From positions 63,900 to 127,899 of the forward strand of contig DVNW01000021.1 in the NCBI GenBank assembly GCA_018714105.1: 64,000 nt of DNA, written 5' to 3'. A program made the position numbers and the translations under genes. The notes beneath the pieces were generated by a model. That model had not been told where the DNA came from and did no database searches. It worked only from the letters and a program-made list of their open reading frames with translations. Shown piece by piece: positions 15,329-33,708 of the stretch; position 1 is the first letter of the stretch; the number at the start of each line of letters is the position of its first letter. Source of the DNA: Candidatus Faecicola pullistercoris (GTDB lineage: Bacteria; Bacillota; Clostridia; Christensenellales; CAG-917).

Positions 15329-15380
15329 CAAAGGCGTCTTTGAGATACCACTCTCGAAGGCGCCTTTGTCTATATTTTTA
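15329..15380 (+). promoter_or_regulatory. 5'-proximal leader hairpin (17-bp stem, hexaloop) plus U-rich tract upstream of glnN
   Basis: caaaggcgtctttgaga-taccac-tctcgaaggcgcctttg followed by tctatattttta. It shares the caaaggcg/cgcctttg stem base with the divergent leader. Confidence 0.55.
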
Positions 15381-15404
15381 TATTTTAACAAGGAGAATTA
15401 CATT

Positions 15405-17501
15405 ATGCAAACGGTAGCAGATTATTTCGGAAGTATGGTATTTGACGACCGCGTTATGCGCGCAACGCTTTCGGCGGAAGTTTACAGAAGTCTCAAAAAG
15501 ACTATTGACCAGGGAGCGCAACTCGATTTATCCGTTGCCAACGCCGTCGCGTCCGCAATGAAGGACTGGGCGGTTTCGAAGGGCGCTACTCACTATACGC
15601 ATTGGTTTCAGCCGCTGACGGGTATCACGGCCGAAAAGCACGACAGCTTTATAACGCCCGCTCCCGACGGCAGAGTAATAATGGAATTTTCGGGCAAGGA
15701 ACTTATCAAAGGCGAACCCGACGCCTCGTCCTTTCCCTCGGGCGGACTGAGAGCCACCTTCGAGGCTCGCGGATATACCGCATGGGACCCGACTTCGTAC
15801 GCGTTTATCAAGGGCAAAACGCTTTGTATACCTACTGCGTTCTGTTCGTACGGCGGAGACGCTCTCGACAAGAAAACCCCGCTTCTGCGTTCGATGGAGG
15901 CGCTCAACAGGCAGGCTATGCGTATCCTTAAACTGTTCGGGAACAAAAACGTAAAATGCGTTAGAACGTCGGTAGGGCCCGAACAGGAATATTTCCTTGT
16001 GCCCAAGGAGCTTTACGACAAGCGCAAGGACCTGATTTACACGGGGCGCACTCTGTTCGGCGCCAAACCGCCGAAGGGGCAGGAAATGGACGACCATTAT
16101 TTCGGCGTCATCAAGCCGCGCGTGGCCGCGTTCATGGACGACCTCAACGAGGAACTCTGGAAACTCGGCGTACTGGCCAAAACCGAACATAACGAAGTTT
16201 CGCCGGCTCAACACGAACTCGCGCCCGTATTTTCAACCACAAACATAGCGACGGACCATAACCAGCTTACTATGGAAATTATGCAGAAGGTGGCGGCAAG
16301 ACACGGCCTGGTTTGCCTGCTGCACGAAAAGCCTTTTGCCGGCGTGAACGGAAGCGGCAAACATAACAACTGGTCCATAGCCACGGACAAGGGAGTAAAC
16401 CTGCTTACCCCCGGCGAAACGCCTCACGAAAACGCGCAGTTCCTGCTTTTCCTTTGCGCCGTATTAAAGGCCGTGGACGATTATCAGGACCTTCTGCGCA
16501 TAGCAGTGGCGACTGCCGGCAACGACCACAGGCTTGGCGCGAACGAAGCTCCTCCCGCAGTGGTTTCGGTATTTTTGGGAGACGAGCTGACCGCAATACT
16601 CGACGCCATAGAAAACGACCTTCCTTACAGCGGGACAAAAAAGAAACTTCTTAAACTCGGCGTAGACGTTCTGCCACTGTTCCCGAAAGACACAACCGAC
16701 AGAAACCGTACTTCACCGTTCGCTTTTACCGGTAATAAGTTTGAGTTCCGTATGTTGGGCTCTTCAAACAGCATTGCCTGCGCAAACATTATGCTTAACA
16801 GCGCGGTGGCCGAATCGCTTAAAATTTATGCCGACAGACTTGAAGACGCCAAGGACTTCAACACGGCCCTTCACGCCATGATCAAAAAGACGATTAAGGA
16901 CCATAAGCGCATAATATTCAACGGCAACGGCTATGACGACGCCTGGATAGAAGAGGCAACTCTGAAGCGCGGATTGCTGAATTATCCCACTACGCCGGAC
17001 TGTATGCCTCACCTGATGGATAAAAAGAACGTGGATATGCTTACTTCTCACGGCGTTTATTCGGAAAAGGAACTTGCTTCCAGATGCGACATAATGCTTG
17101 AAAACTACTGCAAGACTGTTGTTATAGAAGCGTCTACCATGATAGACATGGCGCAGAAACAGATTATTCCCGCAGTGGAAAAATACGCGGCGTCGGTAGC
17201 GCGGGCGGCGGTTTCCAAACAGACTTTGTTACCCGACATCGACTGCGGCTACGAAAAAGAACTGGTAAAGACGCTTTCATGCCTGACGGCTCAGGCCTCG
17301 GCAAAAACAGCCGCTCTCAAAGCGGCGTTGGAAAAGGTCAGGGTGGCTTCTTCCGTTACCGAAGAGGCGTTTGCCATACGGGACGGGCTTCTGCCTGCGA
17401 TGAACGAGCTCAGGGCTGTCGCGGACGAGGCGGAAACGCGTACTGCCGAAGAATTCTGGCCCTTCCCGACGTACGGCGAACTGCTTTTCGGCGTCAGATA
17501 A
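15405..17501 (+). CDS. glnN: glutamine synthetase type III (698 aa), copy 1
   Basis: Start at MQTVADYF with RBS aaggaga. GS-III length and motifs ([56 protein letters not shown]). Confidence 0.9.
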
Positions 17502-22138: not shown

Positions 22139-22169
22139 TAAGCATTTTATACTTGTAATATAATATGAT

Positions 22170-22199
22170 AAAGTCCGTTTTTGCGGACTTTATTTTTTT
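22170..22199 (+). terminator. intrinsic terminator after the chrA pair
   Basis: aaagtccg-tttttg-cggacttt-attttttt. Confidence 0.7.
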
Positions 22200-22257
22200 A
22201 GTCCGGCCGGTGTTTACAAACGCGGAGCGAAGCGCATATATTGTAAAAGAGGTATTT

Positions 22258-23223
22258 ATGGTAAACAAGAACGGAAAATTTTGCGGTTTATCTAGCGGTG
22301 ATTTATGCGGTAAATGCGCCGGACACTGTATAATACGATTCGTAACCGGACCTGCAGGGCCTGCAGGGCCTGCAGGTCCTGCGGGCGCGGACGGCAAGGA
22401 CGGACTCGACGGGCCCACGGGGCCTCAGGGCGCAACGGGCGCAACAGGGCCTGCGGGAGCAACAGGGCCTGCGGGAGCCGACGGGGCGACGGGCGCAACC
22501 GGCCCTGCCGGATTCGAAGCGGTTAACCCTTACGAATTGTACGTGAGGGCGGGTAATACGGGCGGCGACGGTTCGCGGACAAATCCCTTTGCAACAGTGC
22601 AGGAGGCGTACGCCCGAGTATTGCCGCACGGCACCGTCATAATAGAGGCGGGAGACTATCCTTTTACCCAAACGCTTAACTTTGCCAAGGACGACGTAAC
22701 CGTATTCGGCCGTAACGGGGCGCGTATAATATTGCAGGCGGCGACGATTCCCTTTCTGATTACGGGCAGCAATTTCACTTTGTCGGGGCTTACTTTCACA
22801 AGCGACAACCCGTATCCCGTAGAGTTCGTGCAGATAGGGGGAGACAACGCTCTCGTGGACGGAAACGTGTTTTTCGGACCCGACCAATCGGGCCCGTCTA
22901 CCGGTTGGGTAGTAAACAGGGGCGTGGTTACACAGAATTCGGTAAGCGGACTCAGAATGATTAACAATCTGTTTTACTCGCTAAGGCAGCCGGCATATTT
23001 CAATCCTTCCTCTTCGGGGAACGTGCTGTACAATACCGTTTACAATACTCGCGGTTTTGTGGTGGACGGAGCGTTTATGCAGTTTTCGGGTAATTCCTGG
23101 GGCTCGCCCGCCAATGCCGTGGATATAGCTTTGCTTTCGGGCACTACGTCGGGCGTGCCGTACGATTCCGTCCCTGCTCTGGAAGCGTCGAATTCTTCCG
23201 CAAACGTAAGCGACCAGAGATAA
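22258..23223 (+). CDS. collagen-like (G-X-Y) repeat protein with C-terminal right-handed beta-helix (pectate-lyase/DUF1565-like) domain
   Basis: Start at MVNKNGK. A Cys-rich N-terminus (CGLSSGDLCGKCAGHC), 18 G-X-Y triplets, then NPFATVQEAYARV..GTVIIEAGDY..FTLSGLTF..NALVDGNVF, typical of parallel beta-helix proteins. Confidence 0.7.
   Translation: MVNKNGKFCGLSSGDLCGKCAGHCIIRFVTGPAGPAGPAGPAGADGKDGLDGPTGPQGATGATGPAGATGPAGADGATGATGPAGFEAVNPYELYVRAGNTGGDGSRTNPFATVQEAYARVLPHGTVIIEAGDYPFTQTLNFAKDDVTVFGRNGARIILQAATIPFLITGSNFTLSGLTFTSDNPYPVEFVQIGGDNALVDGNVFFGPDQSGPSTGWVVNRGVVTQNSVSGLRMINNLFYSLRQPAYFNPSSSGNVLYNTVYNTRGFVVDGAFMQFSGNSWGSPANAVDIALLSGTTSGVPYDSVPALEASNSSANVSDQR
22348..22512 (+). repeat. G-X-Y coding tandem repeats (9-nt periodicity, GPA/GAT units)
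   Basis: ggacctgcagggcctgcagggcctgcaggtcctgcgggc... encodes GPAGPAGPAGPAGADGKDGLDGPTGPQGATGATGPAGATGPAGADGATGATGPAG. Confidence 0.9.
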
Positions 23224-25783: not shown

Positions 25784-25812
25784 TTGATATTTAGTATTTT
25801 GTTTGCTATAAT
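25784..25812 (+). promoter_or_regulatory. strong sigma-A promoter dedicated to the giant helicase gene
   Basis: TTGATA, a 17-nt spacer ending in tgc (extended -10), then TATAAT. A leader of about 85 nt follows, with a ggcgca/tgcgcc hairpin. Confidence 0.6.
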
Positions 25813-25900
25813 TTATATAATGGATTTTTACTCTGTGTTTGCAGGGCGCACTTAACCGGGCCTTGCGCCGCAATTTTATTACCATTTCAAAGGAGCTTTT

Positions 25901-28900
25901 ATGGCGCAGAATGTTAAAGAGCAACCCAAAACAACGGAAAATATTGTAGAAATCTCGCTGGATTGCAGCAGCGTGGTAAGTTATTTCAGTATCCAGAACG
26001 ACATCAGTCCTATTAAACGCCTGTATCTAAAAAATACTTCGGCGGAAGACATAGAGGGCGTAAAAATAAAGGTTACGTCAACGCCCGATTTTATCATACC
26101 GTTCGAAACGGAACAAAGCGTTCTGCCCCGCAAGACGAACCTCAAATTCGAACTGCCCGTCAAGCTGTCGCCTCTGTTTATGGTGGCGGCGGACAGACGC
26201 ACCGAGGGCGAACTGACCGTGGAAGTTATTGCGGAGGACAAAGTCGTAGCGTCAAAAAGCTGTAAGACGGACATACTGGCTTACAACGAGTGCAATTACG
26301 GGCTTAATCCCGAGTCGGTAGCGTCTTTCGTAAAGCGCACGGCGCAGATAAATTCGCTTATTACCGAAATAAGTCAAAAACTCAAAAACTGGAATTTCGA
26401 TTCGTACGGCGGTTACAACGGCAACCGCAACAACGTAAGAAACTATTTTGCCGCTTGTTTCAGCGTTTTGTCGGACAAGCATTTTATCGATTGCGGAAGC
26501 AGTTCTTCAGGCGACAGCGAAATGGTGCAGAGTCATAAGGAGATTTTGGCTTCCAAGGTTGCCACTCCGCTCGAAACCGCGCTGTTGCTGGCGTCGCTTA
26601 TCGAGGCTAACGGCCAGAATGCGGTGATTGCAAAAATAGACGGCAAATGGTTTACCGGCGTCTTTTTGGTAAACGAATGTCTGCCCATGGTCGTAAGCGA
26701 CGACGCGGACACTATCATCAAAAAGGCCGAAAAAGGGGTGAACGATTTTACTCTCGTGAGTGTGGCCGACGTATTTACGGGGCTGGCCTTCGACAAGGCC
26801 GAAAAGAGCGCGCTGGCGTTTTTGCGAAAGGCGCAGACGGTCGATTTTATCGTAGACGTAAAGCGCGCGCGCATTATGCATATATATCCGCTGCCCGAGA
26901 GGGTTTCGGGTAAGAACGGATACGACCTTGTAAGCAGCAAGGATTACGTTACCTCCGTCGCGCCGAAGCAGATTACCGAATATAAAGGAGACGTGGCGGG
27001 GCAAAAGGAAATCAACCGTATCACCCAGTGGGAAAGACGCCTGCTCGATATGGATATGAGAAACGCCTTGCTGAATTTCAAGGACTCCAAAACGGCGGTG
27101 AAGCTGCTGGTGCCCGGACTTGACGATTTCGTGGCCGCAATGTGGGAGAACAGAACCTACGTTCTGGACCCCAAACCGAAAGACGGCGCGGCCGCTCTGG
27201 AAAAGATAACCGAGGGTTTTGAAAGAAGCAGTTTCTTAAAGCCTTTTGCCGATTACGTGGTTTATGAGTACAAAAATAAACGGTTATTATCCGTTTACGA
27301 TAAGAAAGAACACGACGCCACTCTTCTGAGGCTGTTCAGGAAAGAGTGTTCGATACAGGAAGAAACGGGTACCATGACGCTTTATCTGGCGGCAGGGTTT
27401 TTAAAATGGAAGGAAGACGAAAACGCCGAAGAAAAATACGCGCCTCTTTTGCTGTATCCCGTATCCATGACAAAAAAAGGCGTAGCCGTCCCCGTTTACA
27501 CGCTTGACGTCAACGTCGACGATATCCGCCTGAACAGTACTCTGCTTGAATTTTTGTATCAGGAGTTTAACCTCGATATCAGAGGGCTTGCCACCGTGGA
27601 GCTCGATTCGCAACAGGCCGTAATGTCCATAATAGCAAGGCTGAAAAGGGAAATAGTCGGCTTTAAGGGTTGGGAAATTCTGGGCAACGTCTTTCTGTCG
27701 AGTCTGTCGTTTGCGAATTACCAGCTTTGGTACGACGTCAAATACCGTTCGGACAGGTTCAGGGAACACCCGATTATCAATTCTCTTATCAACAACAAGC
27801 TCGAACTGCCGTCCGACGCCTTCGATTTGTCCGAACGCAGCAGCGACGAGGCCTATACGGCCGAGGAACGCATGTATCTGCCCATATCGGCCGATTCGTC
27901 GCAGTACAGCGCCATATACGACAGCCTTTCCAAGAGTTTTGTTCTTCACGGGCCTCCCGGCACGGGTAAATCGCAGACCATTACCAACATTATAGCCAAT
28001 AACATCGTCAGGGGCAGGAGGGTGCTGTTCGTAGCCGAGAAGATGGCCGCGCTTTCCGTCGTTCACCATCGCCTGCAAACCATAGGCCTGGGGGATTTCT
28101 GTCTGGAACTGCATTCCAACAAAACCAACAAAAATACCGTTCTGGCGCAGATTGTCAATACTCTGTCGCTGGCGGACCAGCCGCAGGAAAACCTTAGCGA
28201 CGACAAACTTGCCGACATCAACGCGGCGGTAGATAAATTACAGAAAGAACTCGACGCCATTCACCGCAAACGCTATCTGGGAATATCCCTTTATCAGGCG
28301 ATACTGGGATACTTTGAAAATCAGGATTCGCCCGACTGCCTGCGTATAGACAGTCTGTTTTACGAAAAACTCGTAGAAAGCTCGTTTGCCAAATATCTCG
28401 ATATTCTTACGGAGCTGACGCTGCGGGCAAAAGAGTGCGGCAATATAGAAAAATCGCCGTTCAGGCACATAGGCGGATTTGTCTACGACGAAAAATGGAA
28501 CGCGCAGGGCAGCGCCGTTTTGGAAATCTACGGCATGGAGCTCAGACATCTCAGACAATACGCAAGAAGTCTGCTTCCTTTGTTCAACATGCGCACGGTA
28601 TCGCTTACGCAGGTCAAACTTAAAGCTTTGTACGATATATGCGAGGCGCTTAAAGAGGATTACGTGGCGCGTTATTTCAAGTCGTCCGATAGCCTTAAAA
28701 ATCCCAAAGGAATAGTCGATTCGTATATAGAAGCCGGTAAAAAATCGCAGATAATGATGAGCGAATATACCGCGCGTTACGGCATTTTCCCCACCTCGGT
28801 GTCCGAGGAGGAACTCGAAGAAGCCGTAAACAAAGGCAATTACGGCAGAAACCTCAAAAAGGCCGTTCCGTCCTCGGTGGATAAGAAGGACAGGCACGCC

Positions 28901-31552
28901 TTCGCCGAATTTCTGCTGCGTTGCGTCAAGACCGGACAGGTGCGCGCAAAGAGGGCGTCCGAGCTTGCAGGCATACTGGGAGTGGACGTTTCCGACGCAG
29001 CCACGCTGGACAGGTGCGCCGAGCGGCTCGATAAACTGTACCGCGACGCCGAAAGACTGTATGCCGAACTCAATACCGAACTTTTCAACCAAAGCTGCGC
29101 GCAGATAGTCAGGTACGGATACAATTCTTTCACCGAGTACTATATGTACGCTTACGAAAACTGCATGCGTGCGGAAGGAGCTTTCTGCGAAATATTCAAC
29201 ACGTCAGGGTACAGCGGCGGTAACGATCTCAACGCAAAAATCGAGTACATAGCCAACATACAAAAGAATTTCGGCTATATTCCCAACTGGTGCAGGTATC
29301 AGGAAATAGTTGAAAAGTGCCGTCAGAGCGGCCTCGATTTCGTGCTTGAACCGCTAAGCGAAGGCGAAATTTCGGCGGCGGACGTGCTCAGATGCTTCAA
29401 AAAGTGCGTATATCTTAATTTTATCCGCAGCGAGCTTCTGCTCGACGACGAGCTTTGCCAGTTCTCGGGACTTACGCTCGAAGAAACGGCAAACCGCTTC
29501 AAGGACCTCGCCGACGAGTACGAACGCCTTACCAGAACGGAGCTTTACAACAAGCTGGTGGCAAATATACCGCGTCCCGAAAGCGAGGGCGAACACAATC
29601 TGGAAAGGGTACTGCTGATGAGAGCGGAGAAATCCAACATGAAGGGTACTACGCTTCGCAATCTCTTTGCAAAAATACCCAATCTTTTAAAAGCCTGCTG
29701 TCCGTGTATGCTTATGAGTCCCACTTCGGTAACTCAGTTTCTGGACATAGACCTTGAAAAATTCGACCTCGTGATTTTCGACGAAGCGTCGCAGATTCCC
29801 ACTTGTAAAGCGGTTGGCAGCATCGTGCGCGCCAAAAACGTTATCGTTGTAGGCGACCCGCAACAGCTTCCGCCCACTACCTTTTTCAGCGCGGACTATA
29901 AAGACGACGAACATTACGAAGTCGAGGACCTCGAAAGCATACTCGAAGACTGTCTTGCTCTCGGCATGCCGCAGAATTACCTGTCCTGGCACTATCGCTC
30001 GCTTCATGAAAGCCTTATCGCTTTTTCTAACGCCATGTTCTACAACAACGGGCTGCATACTTTCCCGTCGCCGAACGAGCTTAACAGCAAAGTGTCCTTT
30101 AAATACATCGACGGCATTTACGAGCGCGGCGGTACCAAATACAATAAAAAGGAAGGCGACGAGCTGGTGGCCGACGTCATCGCGCGACTTAAAAACCCCG
30201 CGGAGAAAAAACACAGCATAGGCATAGTTACCTTTAACACGGCTCAGCAGATTTACATAGAAAATCAGCTTGCCAAGCGCATACACGAATGCGGTCTGGA
30301 CGCGGCGGCTTACGACGTCGACGAGCCGCTTTTCGTAAAGAACCTGGAAAACGTTCAGGGCGACGAGAGAGACGTTATTCTGTTCAGCGTGGGATACGGC
30401 CCCGATAAGAACGGCAGACTTTCGCTCAATTTCGGCCCCATAAACCAGAGCGGCGGATACAAGCGTCTTAACGTAGCCGTAACGCGTGCGCGCTGTGAAA
30501 TGGTCGTATACAGCGCGATTACCGGCAATATGATAGACCTCAGCCGTACCACAAGTAAGGGCGTCGAGTGTCTTAAAGCGTTCCTCGAATATGCCGAACG
30601 CGGCAAGGAAATGCTTGCTTTCGACAGTAAGGATATCACGGGCAGAGCGGCGGGTATCGGCGAGCTTATAGGAAAAGAACTTAAAGACAGGGGAATTCTG
30701 TGCGACTATAACGTGGGAGTTTCCGATTTCAAAATCGACGTCGCCGTGGTGGATCCCAAAAACAAGGATAAATACATTCTCGCAATCATCGCGGACAGCG
30801 AAAACAGCGTAAAACTCAAAGGAGTCAAGGACCGCGTAAGCATGCAGACGAAAATTCTGCGTAAGCTCGGCTGGAATATCTATCAGCTGTGGACGGTGAA
30901 TTATTTCAACAATCCGCGCAGGGAAATTGCCAAGATAAAGGATTATATAGCCACGCTCACGCAGAAGAGAGTGCTGAGCAAAAAAGTCATACGCGATACC
31001 GTTGCAAAATACCGCGTGCCCTATAAGGCGTATCCTTATAAACCCATGACAAGGCAGGGAACGGATTTCGTGCTGGATATCGCCAACGAGGAAAAAATCA
31101 AGGAAAGAATCCGCGCCGTTATCGACAGGGAATCGCCGGTGGAAGGGCATTATCTGTTCGACAAACTGCTGAATATGTACAATATCCCGGCTAACGCAAA
31201 AAGAGCTTCGGCCGCCCTTGCCGCATTTCTGGCAGACTTCGACAATTTCAAAAAGACGGTTGACGGCAAAGTATTCTACGTGGACAAGCCCGTCGATACC
31301 TTCAGACCTTCGGATGGCAAAATAAAAAGGGATATAGCCAAAGTGTATCCCGATGAGATAATAGCCGCGGTAAAATGCGCGGTGGAAAGCAACATAGGCC
31401 TGGATAAAGAAGCCGTTGTCAAGGAGGTAATCAATCTGTTCGGTTACGGCAAGAAGACTAAGTCGGCGGCAGACTGGATTAACCGCGCGATAGAAAACGC
31501 CGTGAACGAACACGTGCTTATGATAACGGTGGACGGAGTGCTTTCCACTTAA
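25901..31552 (+). CDS. hheA: 1883-aa DUF4011-type SF1 (Upf1-like) helicase with C-terminal restriction-endonuclease-like and DUF3320-like regions; HheA-like
   Basis: RBS aaggag. WERRLLDMDMRNALLNFK (DUF4011 hallmark), Walker A LHGPPGTGKSQT (about aa 684), Walker B VIFDEASQ (about aa 1291), VVGDPQQLPPT, HYRSLHESLI, NVQGDERDVILFS, RLNVAVTRAR, then GILCDYNVGVSDFKIDVAVVDPKNKDKYILAIIADS. The hheA symbol is tentative and comes from remembered architecture only. Confidence 0.7.
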   Translation: MAQNVKEQPKTTENIVEISLDCSSVVSYFSIQNDISPIKRLYLKNTSAEDIEGVKIKVTSTPDFIIPFETEQSVLPRKTNLKFELPVKLSPLFMVAADRRTEGELTVEVIAEDKVVASKSCKTDILAYNECNYGLNPESVASFVKRTAQINSLITEISQKLKNWNFDSYGGYNGNRNNVRNYFAACFSVLSDKHFIDCGSSSSGDSEMVQSHKEILASKVATPLETALLLASLIEANGQNAVIAKIDGKWFTGVFLVNECLPMVVSDDADTIIKKAEKGVNDFTLVSVADVFTGLAFDKAEKSALAFLRKAQTVDFIVDVKRARIMHIYPLPERVSGKNGYDLVSSKDYVTSVAPKQITEYKGDVAGQKEINRITQWERRLLDMDMRNALLNFKDSKTAVKLLVPGLDDFVAAMWENRTYVLDPKPKDGAAALEKITEGFERSSFLKPFADYVVYEYKNKRLLSVYDKKEHDATLLRLFRKECSIQEETGTMTLYLAAGFLKWKEDENAEEKYAPLLLYPVSMTKKGVAVPVYTLDVNVDDIRLNSTLLEFLYQEFNLDIRGLATVELDSQQAVMSIIARLKREIVGFKGWEILGNVFLSSLSFANYQLWYDVKYRSDRFREHPIINSLINNKLELPSDAFDLSERSSDEAYTAEERMYLPISADSSQYSAIYDSLSKSFVLHGPPGTGKSQTITNIIANNIVRGRRVLFVAEKMAALSVVHHRLQTIGLGDFCLELHSNKTNKNTVLAQIVNTLSLADQPQENLSDDKLADINAAVDKLQKELDAIHRKRYLGISLYQAILGYFENQDSPDCLRIDSLFYEKLVESSFAKYLDILTELTLRAKECGNIEKSPFRHIGGFVYDEKWNAQGSAVLEIYGMELRHLRQYARSLLPLFNMRTVSLTQVKLKALYDICEALKEDYVARYFKSSDSLKNPKGIVDSYIEAGKKSQIMMSEYTARYGIFPTSVSEEELEEAVNKGNYGRNLKKAVPSSVDKKDRHAFAEFLLRCVKTGQVRAKRASELAGILGVDVSDAATLDRCAERLDKLYRDAERLYAELNTELFNQSCAQIVRYGYNSFTEYYMYAYENCMRAEGAFCEIFNTSGYSGGNDLNAKIEYIANIQKNFGYIPNWCRYQEIVEKCRQSGLDFVLEPLSEGEISAADVLRCFKKCVYLNFIRSELLLDDELCQFSGLTLEETANRFKDLADEYERLTRTELYNKLVANIPRPESEGEHNLERVLLMRAEKSNMKGTTLRNLFAKIPNLLKACCPCMLMSPTSVTQFLDIDLEKFDLVIFDEASQIPTCKAVGSIVRAKNVIVVGDPQQLPPTTFFSADYKDDEHYEVEDLESILEDCLALGMPQNYLSWHYRSLHESLIAFSNAMFYNNGLHTFPSPNELNSKVSFKYIDGIYERGGTKYNKKEGDELVADVIARLKNPAEKKHSIGIVTFNTAQQIYIENQLAKRIHECGLDAAAYDVDEPLFVKNLENVQGDERDVILFSVGYGPDKNGRLSLNFGPINQSGGYKRLNVAVTRARCEMVVYSAITGNMIDLSRTTSKGVECLKAFLEYAERGKEMLAFDSKDITGRAAGIGELIGKELKDRGILCDYNVGVSDFKIDVAVVDPKNKDKYILAIIADSENSVKLKGVKDRVSMQTKILRKLGWNIYQLWTVNYFNNPRREIAKIKDYIATLTQKRVLSKKVIRDTVAKYRVPYKAYPYKPMTRQGTDFVLDIANEEKIKERIRAVIDRESPVEGHYLFDKLLNMYNIPANAKRASAALAAFLADFDNFKKTVDGKVFYVDKPVDTFRPSDGKIKRDIAKVYPDEIIAAVKCAVESNIGLDKEAVVKEVINLFGYGKKTKSAADWINRAIENAVNEHVLMITVDGVLST

Positions 31553-31569: not shown

Positions 31570-31604
31570 AAAGGAACGGGGTTGTCCCGTTCCTTTATTT
31601 TTAT
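31570..31604. terminator. bidirectional terminator between the helicase gene and glnN copy 2
   Basis: aaaggaacggg-gttgt-cccgttccttt flanked by A/T runs on both sides. Confidence 0.8.
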
Positions 31605-31611
31605 GCTATGG

Positions 31612-33708
31612 TTATTTTACGCTGAACAGCAACTCGCCGTAAGTCGGGAACGGCCAGAATTTTGCGGCGGTGTTGAGTTCCATTTCGTCGGCTACCGCCC
31701 GAAGTTCTTTCATTGCGGGGATCACTCTGTCGCGATAGCTTTCGGCCGCTTTTGCTCCTTCGCCGAATCCGTGAGTTTCAAAGAGCGCGGTTTCCAGAAG
31801 TTTGAGTTTTTTGCTTCCGCTGGAATACAGTCCGCTCAGTTTTGCCACGAGGGCGGTCTCTTCCTCGGAGGATATGAAATTGTCTACCGCGCGCTTTGCG
31901 GCGATTTCTTCGCAAAGCTCTTTGATGTATTCGCTTACTGCGGGCAGAATTTCCTTTTTCATCATATCCGACATGGTAAGAGCCTCGATATTCATTACCT
32001 TGCAGTAGTTTTCGGTAAGAATTTCCTGCCTGGACCTGAGTTCGGCTTCGGTAAAGACGCCGTGCCGAGCAAACAGAGCCATGTTCTTTTCAAAAGTGTA
32101 GCACGGGAGTACGTCGGCCGTGCTCTTGTAATTGAGTAAGCCGCGTTTACCCGCTTCTTCCAGCCACTCTGCCGAGTAGTTGTTGCCGTTGAAGATGATG
32201 CGTTTGTGAGCCTTTATGGTTTTTCTTATTATTCTGGTGATGGCGTCGTTAAAGTTTTCGTCGCTGTTTTCAAGCTCGTCCGCAAATATTTTCAGCGTAT
32301 CGGCAACGGCCGTGTTTATAACGGTGTTGGAATCGGCAATCGAAAAGGCCGAACCCAGCATCCTGAACTCGAATTTGTTGCCCGTAAACGCAAAAGGAGA
32401 GGTGCGGTTTCTGTCCGTGCTGTCCTTAGGCAGCTGGGGCATGACGTGCACGCCTATTTCCACGTTGCATTTCGCTCTGCGGCTGTAAGTGCGGTCTTCT
32501 TCAATTGCCGAAAGAATACCGTCCAGCTCCTCGCCGAGATATATCGAAACGATTGCGGGCGGCGCTTCGTTGGCTCCCAGTCTGTGGTCGTTGCCCGCGC
32601 TTGCCGCCGTCAGCCTCAACAAATCCTGATAGTCGTCAACGGCCTTGATTACCGCCGACAGGAACAGCAGGAACTGAGCGTTGTCGTACGGGCTGTTTCC
32701 GGGTTCGAGCAGGTTAATGCCCGTATCGGTGGAAAGCGACCAATTATTATGTTTACCGCTTCCGTTTACGCCTTCAAACGGCTTTTCGTGCAAAAGACAC
32801 GTGAGTCCGTGACGCACGGCAACCTTTTTCATGACCTCCATGGTAAGCTGATTGTGGTCGTTGGCTATGCTTGTAGGCGTATATATGGGCGCCAGCTCGT
32901 GCTGCGAGGGAGCAACTTCGTTATGCTTGGTTTTGGCCGAAATGCCGAGTTTCCAAAGTTCCTCGTCAAGGTCCTTCATGTATGCGGCTACGCGCGGTTT
33001 GATCGCGCCGAAGTAGTGGTCTTCCAGTTCCTGTCCTTTCGGGGGACGGGCGCCGAACAGCGTCCTGCCCGTGTACATTATATCCTTGCGCATGCCGCAG
33101 ATTTTGCCGTCGATAAGGAAATATTCCTGCTCGGGCCCCGCGGTGGGAATAACTTTTTTAACGTCGTTCTTTCCGAAAAGGCGCAGTATCCTCAATGCCT
33201 GTTTATTGATGGCTTCGATGGACTTTAAAAGAGGGGTTTTTTTGTCGAGGGCCTCGCCCGTGTAAGAGCAGAACGCAGTCGGAATACACAGTATTCCGTC
33301 TTTTATGAACGCGTAGGACGTCGGATCCCATGCTGTATATCCGCGCGCCTCGAAAGTCGCCCTGAGCCCGCCCGACGGAAAGGACGAAGCGTCGGGTTCG
33401 CCTTTAATAAGCTCCTTGCCGGAAAACTCCATTATAACCCTTCCGTCGCTTGTGGGGCTGATGAACGAATCGTGCTTTTCGGCGGTTACGCCCGTCATGG
33501 GCTGGAACCAATGCGTATAATGAGTTACGCCTTTTTCGATGGCCCAATCCTTCATGGCGCCGGCAACGACGTCAGCGACTTCGCGCGATAAGCTTCTGTC
33601 CTCGGCTATGCATTTTTTTAGCTCGTTATAAGTTGCGGCAGGCAGCCGTTTTTTCATAACCGCGTCGTTAAACGCCATCGAGCCGAATATTTCCGACATA
33701 GGAACCAT
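31612..33708 (-). CDS. glnN: glutamine synthetase type III (698 aa), copy 2
   Basis: Same length and motifs as 15405-17501. Long identical peptide stretches ([40 protein letters not shown]) but many synonymous differences at the DNA level. Confidence 0.9.

Follow-up and report, generated by a model that had tools for sequence, protein, structure and literature searches.

Related systems and family placement

The closest described relative of the gene studied here is ProA, which on its own makes up the Prometheus system (van den Berg et al. 2024, Cell Host Microbe 32:1427, via PMC13700489). As far as that work is cited in PMC13700489, ProA has been experimentally validated as a single-protein defence in P. 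aeruginosa, is composed of four domains and a characteristic insertion, every one of which is required, and is related to eukaryotic enzymes acting on R-loops. An older point of comparison is the founding MTES_1575 protein described by Anantharaman et al. 2013 (PMC3710099), which combines HEPN, transglutaminase, superfamily 1 (SF1) helicase, Vsr nuclease and two winged-helix domains, the latter overlapping DUF3320. Here we describe a 1883-aa relative of these proteins encoded by Candidatus Faecicola pullistercoris in a stretch of 64,000 nucleotides (contig DVNW01000021.1, positions 63,900 to 127,899; this whole stretch is called the window below), which comes from a 1.62-Mb Christensenellales assembly of chicken or bird gut origin. 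As judged by profile matches, the protein is ProA/PDC-S37-like, a cousin of Hhe that lies just outside the NCBI equivalog boundary. Its most likely role, at a probability of roughly 60%, would be anti-phage or anti-mobile-element defence, settled as a stable chromosomal gene.

25901..31552, + strand: open reading frame (ORF) P0001, 1883 aa, ProA/PDC-S37-like helicase-nuclease-fold protein (open frame, translation, family matches)

The frame of 1883 codons is open, as a preliminary description of the window made from the sequence alone had reported. The best NCBIfam match of its product was the ProA model NF058533, with 1432.7 bits over aa 29-1850 on profile positions 3-1902 of 1903, and the best PADLOC model was PDC-S37 (E 5e-293, 973.8 bits, aa 372-1873 on profile positions 8-1538 of 1550). 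The reference set used for comparison consisted of four homologues that exceed the ProA cut-off (1772-2255 bits): the proteins of Bacteroides finegoldii (2197 bits), a Klebsiella IncFIB plasmid (2225), an Acinetobacter plasmid (1772) and Cohnella lubricantis (2255). The best PADLOC model for all four of them is likewise PDC-S37, hence ProA and PDC-S37 are to be regarded as two names for one family; a literature search on the name PDC-S37 found no paper. More than 5800 homologues were obtained, and among the best 120 listed nearly all are full length.

The likeness to ProA extends to the order of parts from end to end, with an N-terminal module, DUF4011, an SF1 helicase carrying an insert of ~600 aa between Walker A and Walker B, MTES_1575 and a DUF3320-type tail. 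Both are single genes, with all helicase residues and three nuclease-fold Asp in common. On the other side, the protein aligns over the full length with the four cut-off-passing references at 27-32% identity only, and its score of 1432.7 bits compares with an equivalog cut-off of 1500. Automated pipelines will presumably leave the name 'DUF4011 domain-containing protein' because the score falls just under this cut-off, and the annotation we suggest is ProA/PDC-S37-like, not Hhe.

The preliminary description had taken the gene for HheA. The E-values of the Hhe models are strong (PADLOC Hhe, PDLC02194, 3.1e-138; NCBIfam Hhe_antiphage, NF042953, 3.3e-198), and in both cases we deal with a large single-gene DUF4011 protein that combines an SF1 helicase with a Vsr-type fold, the homology extending over the latter and the second half of the helicase (aa ~1105-1697). 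However, these matches are confined to aa 1105-1697 and aa 1108-1695, respectively, leaving the N-terminal two thirds of the 1883-aa protein unmatched, and they reach 661.3 bits against a cut-off of 2000 in NCBIfam and 460.4 bits against 973.8 for PDC-S37 in PADLOC. ProA matches end to end, and the reference ProA proteins show the same pattern towards Hhe. The PADLOC search that had been proposed as a check for an HheA profile ranked PDC-S37 first and Hhe as a partial match. Membership in Hhe is effectively refuted by model scores and coverage, and a true Hhe system seems to us hardly credible. What stands of the earlier identification is the wider group, that of single-gene DUF4011 helicase-nuclease defence candidates.

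The family, its architecture and its defence label are already known, and the gene is a divergent member; since family and architecture are catalogued, none of the findings will greatly surprise a specialist. Specific to this locus are the traits of its Christensenellales sub-branch: the transglutaminase-like centre is inactivated, the winged-helix tail is degenerate, and the chromosomal setting is non-island and partly syntenic.

Helicase core and helical insert

27038..27556, + strand: DUF4011, aa 380-552 (Pfam PF13195, 113.5 bits, profile positions 1-158 of 158)
27878..28120, + strand: RecA-like domain 1, first part, with Walker A GPPGTGKSQT and Lys690 (AAA_19, AAA_30 and AAA_11 at aa 667-724)
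28133..29695, + strand: all-helical insert of ~520 aa inside RecA-like domain 1 (AlphaFold2 model)
29696..30520, + strand: rest of the SF1B Upf1-like core, motifs II-VI with DEASQ, GDPQQLPPT, QGDERD and VAVTRAR (AAA_11, AAA_12)

All motifs quoted in the preliminary description were recovered from the translation, i.e., WERRLLDMDMRNALLNFK, GPPGTGKSQT (aa 684-693), VIFDEASQ (aa 1291-1298), VVGDPQQLPPT, HYRSLHESLI, NVQGDERDVILFS, LNVAVTRAR and 'IIADS', and the SF1 ATPase/helicase motifs GPPGTGKS, DEASQ, GDPQQLPPT, QGDERD and VAVTRAR are intact. The domain string that it had listed was borne out by Pfam for DUF4011, AAA_11, AAA_12 and MTES_1575, all of which scored over the cut-off. AAA_11 (66.7 bits) is split between the P-loop region (aa ~670-724) and aa 1284-1328, and AAA_12 spans aa 1345-1537 with 64.9 bits. 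In an alignment of 87 family members, over which all residue counts given here were taken, Lys690, Asp1294 and Glu1295 are invariant (87/87).

The insertion of about 600 aa noticed earlier between Walker A and Walker B measures 609 residues, and the same spacing amounts to 609-644 residues in relatives. The AlphaFold2 model of aa 725-1283 has a mean predicted local distance difference test score (pLDDT) of 90.4 and comprises ~25 helices. The insert had no Pfam match, and a fold search against the PDB gave no significant match (best E 0.027, TM-score at most 0.13). This helical insert is a hallmark of the ProA/PDC-S37 family.

The nearest solved structures of the helicase core were Sen1, Upf1/NAM7 and IGHMBP2 (PDB sequence search, E 9e-8 to 2e-5), the match to IGHMBP2 covering aa 662-724. 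The likeness to Sen1/senataxin, IGHMBP2 and Upf1 consists of the helicase core motifs and these best PDB sequence matches, whereas only the two RecA-like domains are held in common: the accessory domains differ, and the ~520-aa helical insert is without counterpart in solved structures.

Nuclease-fold domain and C-terminal tail

30668..30946, + strand: Vsr-type restriction-endonuclease-fold domain MTES_1575, aa 1590-1682 (Pfam PF18741, 61.4 bits)
30998..31549, + strand: C-terminal tail, degenerate homologue of the DUF3320/double winged-helix region (sub-threshold DUF3320, alignment)

At the position of the canonical h-D...E-x-D-G-x-x-x-H signature the protein reads 'IIADS', with Glu replaced by Ile, Gly replaced by Ser and the downstream His absent. 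The preliminary description had pointed to I-A-D-S at the ExDG position as a degenerate motif. The reading of the letters was correct, but a decay particular to this gene was not confirmed: the Glu is missing in 84 of the 87 family members, which makes 'IADS' a family trait and not decay. A Glu/His pair was present in three members only, the Klebsiella plasmid protein and two proteins from viral contigs, and the Cohnella, Bacteroides and Acinetobacter proteins, all above the ProA cut-off, are also without the nuclease Glu/His. The absence of this Glu is a likeness to most cut-off-passing members of ProA. Asp1613, Asp1632 and Asp1644 are invariant (87/87) and Arg1645 is kept in 83/87. Such an invariant three-Asp site argues for a constrained function of the predicted nuclease fold.

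The tail had been called DUF3320-type. Its homologous position and alignment uphold this assignment, whereas Pfam leaves it sub-threshold: searched alone, the tail gave DUF3320 at aa 1728-1761 with E 0.065 and 13.6 bits against a cut-off of 25, and in the scan of the full protein DUF3320 was not detected at E <= 0.01. The tail aligns with the strong DUF3320 regions of the Cohnella (73.5 bits) and Bacteroides (58.3 bits) proteins; its winged-helix assignment comes from PMC3710099. A linker of ~60 aa that precedes the tail in canonical ProA is missing here, and this, together with the sub-threshold score, sets the protein apart from ProA.

N-terminal module

25946..26296, + strand: beta-sandwich (Ig-like) subdomain, aa 16-132 (AlphaFold2 model, Foldseek)
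26309..26950, + strand: transglutaminase-like alpha/beta core, aa 137-350 (motif alignment, model, weak Pfam matches in relatives)

The first ~370 residues, overlooked in the preliminary description, form a transglutaminase-like module in which the catalytic pair is lost. An AlphaFold2 model of the N-terminus built from 74 homologous sequences (mean pLDDT 92, predicted template modelling score 0.87) consists of a sandwich followed by an alpha/beta domain. When this model was submitted to Foldseek, the matches spanned ~115-145 columns and were essentially beta-sandwich domains (factor XIII, protein 4.2, RhoGDI, CARDB); the transglutaminase core itself was not recovered by Foldseek, and a PDB profile search with the N-terminal alignment gave no match.

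The pattern G-x-C-[LM]-D, followed after ~25 residues by G-H-[AI]-F and then by D-D, is kept in 19-20 of the 87 members and corresponds to the Cys-His-Asp pattern of transglutaminase-like cysteine enzymes. The Cys/His pair is present in all four proteins over the ProA cut-off, and three of the members bearing it showed weak matches to Transglut_core or DUF553. The transglutaminase call relies on this Cys/His/Asp motif pattern, the weak Pfam matches in the three members, the secondary-structure pattern and PMC3710099. In the 1883-aa protein, unlike in the ProA references, Pro223 stands in place of the Cys and Lys249 in place of the His, and Asp267/Asp268 are retained; in the model, residue 223 stands at the N-terminus of a helix (223-236), next to which a beta-hairpin (241-255) is found. 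From these substitutions the transglutaminase-like centre is predicted to be dead in the Christensenellales branch. With MTES_1575-type proteins the protein has in common the transglutaminase-like module, SF1 helicase, Vsr-fold domain and winged-helix tail, and it differs from them in that no HEPN domain was detected by the Pfam scan and the catalytic pair of the transglutaminase is lost.

A side observation concerns the complete 1.53-Mb genome of a relative, G016 (C1:276632-282231, - strand; also L022/L044), where the ProA-like frame is split near residue 230. The two pieces overlap (aa 15-231 and aa 230-1880), the break falls inside the dead transglutaminase-like domain, and the split is either a frameshift or a sequencing error.

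Distribution, mobility and integrity

A full-length homologue was found in ~19 of 73 high-quality species genomes of the same bacterial family, with the following numbers of positive species in eight genera.

Genus g10: 9/9
Genus g11: 2/2
Genus g13: 3/8
Genus g8: 1/2
Genus g15: 0/34, two species with distant partial matches only
Genus g6: 0/5
Genus g9: 0/3
Genus g3: 0/3

This patchy presence, seen also inside two genera (3/8 and 1/2), supports a role in defence, and the absence from most of the family together with the variability in g13 and g8 indicates that the gene is dispensable. It had been stated beforehand that the defence call would be weakened if close homologues were core genes in all relatives with no association to defence loci. 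The relatives are indeed almost without such an association, whereas the gene is not universal in the bacterial family.

The identities of pyrG and of the ProA-like protein correlate poorly. The genus closest by pyrG is without the gene, and in genome G003 the values are 68% for pyrG and 41% for the ProA-like protein; pyrG is a weak single marker of vertical inheritance in this comparison, being missing from 14 of the 73 genomes. Separately, pyrG and the ProA-like gene were observed to be either both present or both absent within genus g13 (G012, G091 and G092 versus G023 and G087-G090) and genus g8 (G007 versus G019). Where they co-occur they sit on different contigs, and the co-occurrence may point to sub-lineages that differ in how far their genomes have been reduced.

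The wider family is mobile. As many as 613 plasmid records contain homologues, of which 18 are near full length, and this supports the defence reading; the Klebsiella plasmid copy is located between insertion sequence (IS) elements and the Acinetobacter plasmid copy among toxin-antitoxin genes. Viral carriage is rare, with a relative on 13 of 2.9 million viral contigs at no more than 40% identity. A plasmid-labelled record of 45.8 kb (L107, NZ_OY725931.1, Bacteroides finegoldii 'plasmid 29') deserves a remark of its own: it looks like a chromosome fragment because rpsA, glutamine synthetase III (GS-III), trxB and bglX are aboard. The ends of its ProA homologue (2197 bits) and of a convergent 'reverse transcriptase family protein' gene are 1 bp apart, and a GH3 gene and GS-III lie near the homologue, as in the window studied here; their vicinity to both ProA homologues is probably a coincidence.

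Four independent chicken-gut metagenome studies yielded long contigs with the same GH3-gene-GSIII arrangement at ~99% identity, and the four strains differ by substitutions only, the ORF being free of indels. The ORFs recovered from related genomes, down to ~35% identity, showed no internal stop codons. These observations bear on the possibility that the gene is a relic, i.e., a one-time defence enzyme whose catalytic centres are being lost and which no longer serves any function. The lost transglutaminase pair, the absent nuclease Glu/His, the degenerate DUF3320 region and the split frame of G016 would fit such decay. Against it speak the intact frame of 1883 codons and the stop-free ORFs of relatives, the full length of nearly all among the best 120 homologues listed, the invariance (87/87) of the ATPase residues and of three Asp, the substitution-only pattern of the four strains, and the confident models of the N-terminal and insert regions, which suggest conserved folds. 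Altogether, we regard a functionless relic as improbable.

Neighbourhoods of homologues

The preliminary description had placed the gene among metabolic genes and outside a defence island, and the neighbours in the window are in fact metabolic. Upstream lie CTP synthase, two ChrA halves, a collagen-repeat protein and a GH3 enzyme; downstream lie GS-III, a TRIC-type channel, GH2, CysK and an S51 peptidase. A survey of 135 flanking ORFs at 34 homologue loci agreed with this picture in showing no defence-island enrichment. The commonest flanking families were ComEC (8), HolA (4), UvrD-type helicases (4-5), PyrG and ChrA, and the matches to the GajB model among flanking ORFs are these 4-5 UvrD-type helicases. 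The stable chromosomal context without defence neighbours is a difference from some canonical ProA members, which are found in plasmid or IS contexts. The closest homologues (70-72% identity) have no neighbours in common with this locus.

An empty-site comparison within genus g8, between G007 and G019, the latter without the gene, revealed no clean insertion or deletion boundary that could be read. In G019 the upstream neighbour runs into unrelated genes and the downstream neighbour is at a contig start. At the corresponding locus (L110, G019:C13, 7875-14524) a different run of five ORFs on the minus strand (481, 388, 570, 212 and 310 aa) comes after the conserved upstream neighbour, in place of the ProA-like gene.

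According to an alternative explanation, a ProA-type protein was taken over for genome maintenance in the Christensenellales branch and its defence function was lost. Possible tasks of such a domesticated housekeeping helicase include R-loop removal, the resolution of transcription-replication conflicts and the processing of incoming or damaged DNA. Several features are in line with it: the neighbours are housekeeping genes, often of DNA uptake or replication (ComEC 8 ORFs, HolA 4, UvrD-type 4-5); synteny with chrA, GS-III and pyrG is partly kept; the gene is fixed in g10 (9/9) and g11 (2/2); G+C is flat; an identical locus occurs in the four independent metagenome studies; a gene of 5.6 kb is kept in a reduced genome of 1.6 Mb; the core is closest to Sen1, an R-loop/transcription-termination helicase; and the Cys/His pair is lost branch-wide while the helicase residues and the three nuclease-fold Asp are invariant. 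On the other hand, most of the bacterial family is without the gene (g15 0/34, g6 0/5, g9 0/3, g3 0/3), its identity departs from the pattern of a housekeeping marker (a pyrG-closest genus without the gene; 68% versus 41% in G003), its closest homologues at 70-72% identity are without common neighbours, and the wider family is plasmid-borne and carries an anti-phage label. Domestication in this general form appears to us possible, if rather unlikely.

In a more specific version, the branch would have been domesticated after losing the transglutaminase pair, with the Sen1/Upf1-like motor and the three-Asp Vsr-fold site retained, and would now act like a bacterial senataxin in the clearing of R-loops or the resolution of transcription-replication conflicts, as a resident chromosomal gene near genes of DNA uptake, replication and metabolism. 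We put this version forward as a doubtful, speculative proposal. If it were true, an immune helicase-nuclease would have turned into a housekeeping enzyme or, in the reverse direction, the branch would represent a housekeeping ancestor of Prometheus.

Proposed function

Defence against phages or mobile elements, by a gene that has become a stable resident of the chromosome, is the role to which we assign the rough probability given above. The family includes a validated single-gene defence (Prometheus), and the assignment is based on the end-to-end match to ProA, the invariant residues, the mobility of the family on plasmids, its patchiness, the intact frame and the possession of an own promoter-like site and terminator. 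In the mechanism that we propose, the protein would act alone as a nucleic-acid surveillance enzyme. Its N-terminal and DUF4011 parts, presumably non-catalytic now, would together with the winged-helix tail bind or sense the target, the N-terminal module serving in the Christensenellales branch as a binding or sensing scaffold only. The target may be the nucleic acid of an invading phage or plasmid, or an R-loop-like replication or transcription intermediate, as has been proposed for Prometheus. The helicase would then translocate along the target in an ATP-driven manner and the Vsr-fold domain might nick or hold the substrate, by which the invader would be blocked.

A number of observations weigh against this assignment. 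Defence genes are nearly absent among the 135 flanking ORFs (Cas9/Cas1 at one locus, mad3/mad8 in at most 2 ORFs), six relatives have chrA directly upstream of the gene and others have GS-III or pyrG within 8 kb of it, G+C remains flat across the gene, and genus g10 has the gene in all nine species. With the same locus in four metagenomes, the gene resembles a resident rather than a defence gene that comes and goes. The equivalog cut-off of NF058533 (1500 bits) is missed both by the protein (1432.7) and at genome level (1429.2). The Cys/His pair of the transglutaminase-like centre is gone throughout the Christensenellales branch, and the DUF3320 tail is, by its Pfam score and alignment, degenerate; should every domain be required, as is reported for ProA, an identical mechanism could not operate here. 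Finally, so far as Prometheus is covered by the cited literature, its mechanism is not established and its link to R-loops stems from secondary citations.

The Christensenellales branch may be viewed as a natural separation-of-function variant of Prometheus, in which the transglutaminase-like centre is predicted to be dead and the motor and a reduced nuclease site to be intact. Comparison with canonical ProA could reveal the job of the N-terminal module, which might be a sensor or else a protease/transglutaminase effector, and could show if defence requires this module. The stable non-island setting in reduced gut genomes also bears on the housekeeping roles of 'defence' helicases.

Transcription signals and locus layout

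25784..25812, + strand: sigma-70-type promoter-like site TTGATA-17 nt-TATAAT with a TG extension upstream of the -10 hexamer (11/12, the best of the region)
25890..25895, + strand: ribosome-binding site AAGGAG, with ATG 5 nt downstream (read from the sequence)
31570..31596, both strands: bidirectional intrinsic-terminator-like hairpin (12 and 11 pairs, T-run on each strand)

The extended -10 promoter and the bidirectional terminator of the preliminary description were both found again, the former as TTGATA-17-TATAAT with TG (11/12) and the latter as a 12-bp hairpin with T-runs on both strands, and the monocistronic look of the gene agrees with its own promoter-like site and terminator. The terminator-like hairpin is common to the ORF and the convergent GS-III gene. 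One metatranscriptome contig starts at 25812, the last base of the -10 hexamer, and three metatranscriptomes contained short contigs of at least 99% identity across the ORF, at depths similar to those of the neighbours. These contigs are weakly consistent with expression of the ProA-like gene, because the data are contigs and carry-over of DNA is possible.

Between the predicted promoter and the ribosome-binding site, the leader at 25840-25880 (+ strand) contains a hairpin, GCAGGGCG...CGCCGC followed by AAUUUUAUU, that resembles a terminator. The stability of this GC-rich hairpin of the 5' leader (~25840-25868) was not above that of shuffled sequence (z = -0.81) and it was without Rfam match; on these two grounds the terminator reading of 25840-25880 was rejected.

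Two diverged type III glutamine synthetase paralogues are located at 15366-17501 (+ strand) and 31612-33708 (- strand), in inverted orientation, and flank a segment of ~14 kb that holds pyrG, chrA, the collagen-repeat gene, GH3 and the ProA-like gene. By tblastn, both paralogues match one and the same set of GS-III genes in relatives, and an inversion between the two copies is conceivable. Between chrA and GH3, at 22165-23223 (+ strand), a protein of 352 aa with a collagen triple-helix repeat is encoded (Pfam Collagen, E 4.7e-9), and a 59%-identical homologue of it is found directly downstream of the ProA-like gene in one relative (L013/L032).

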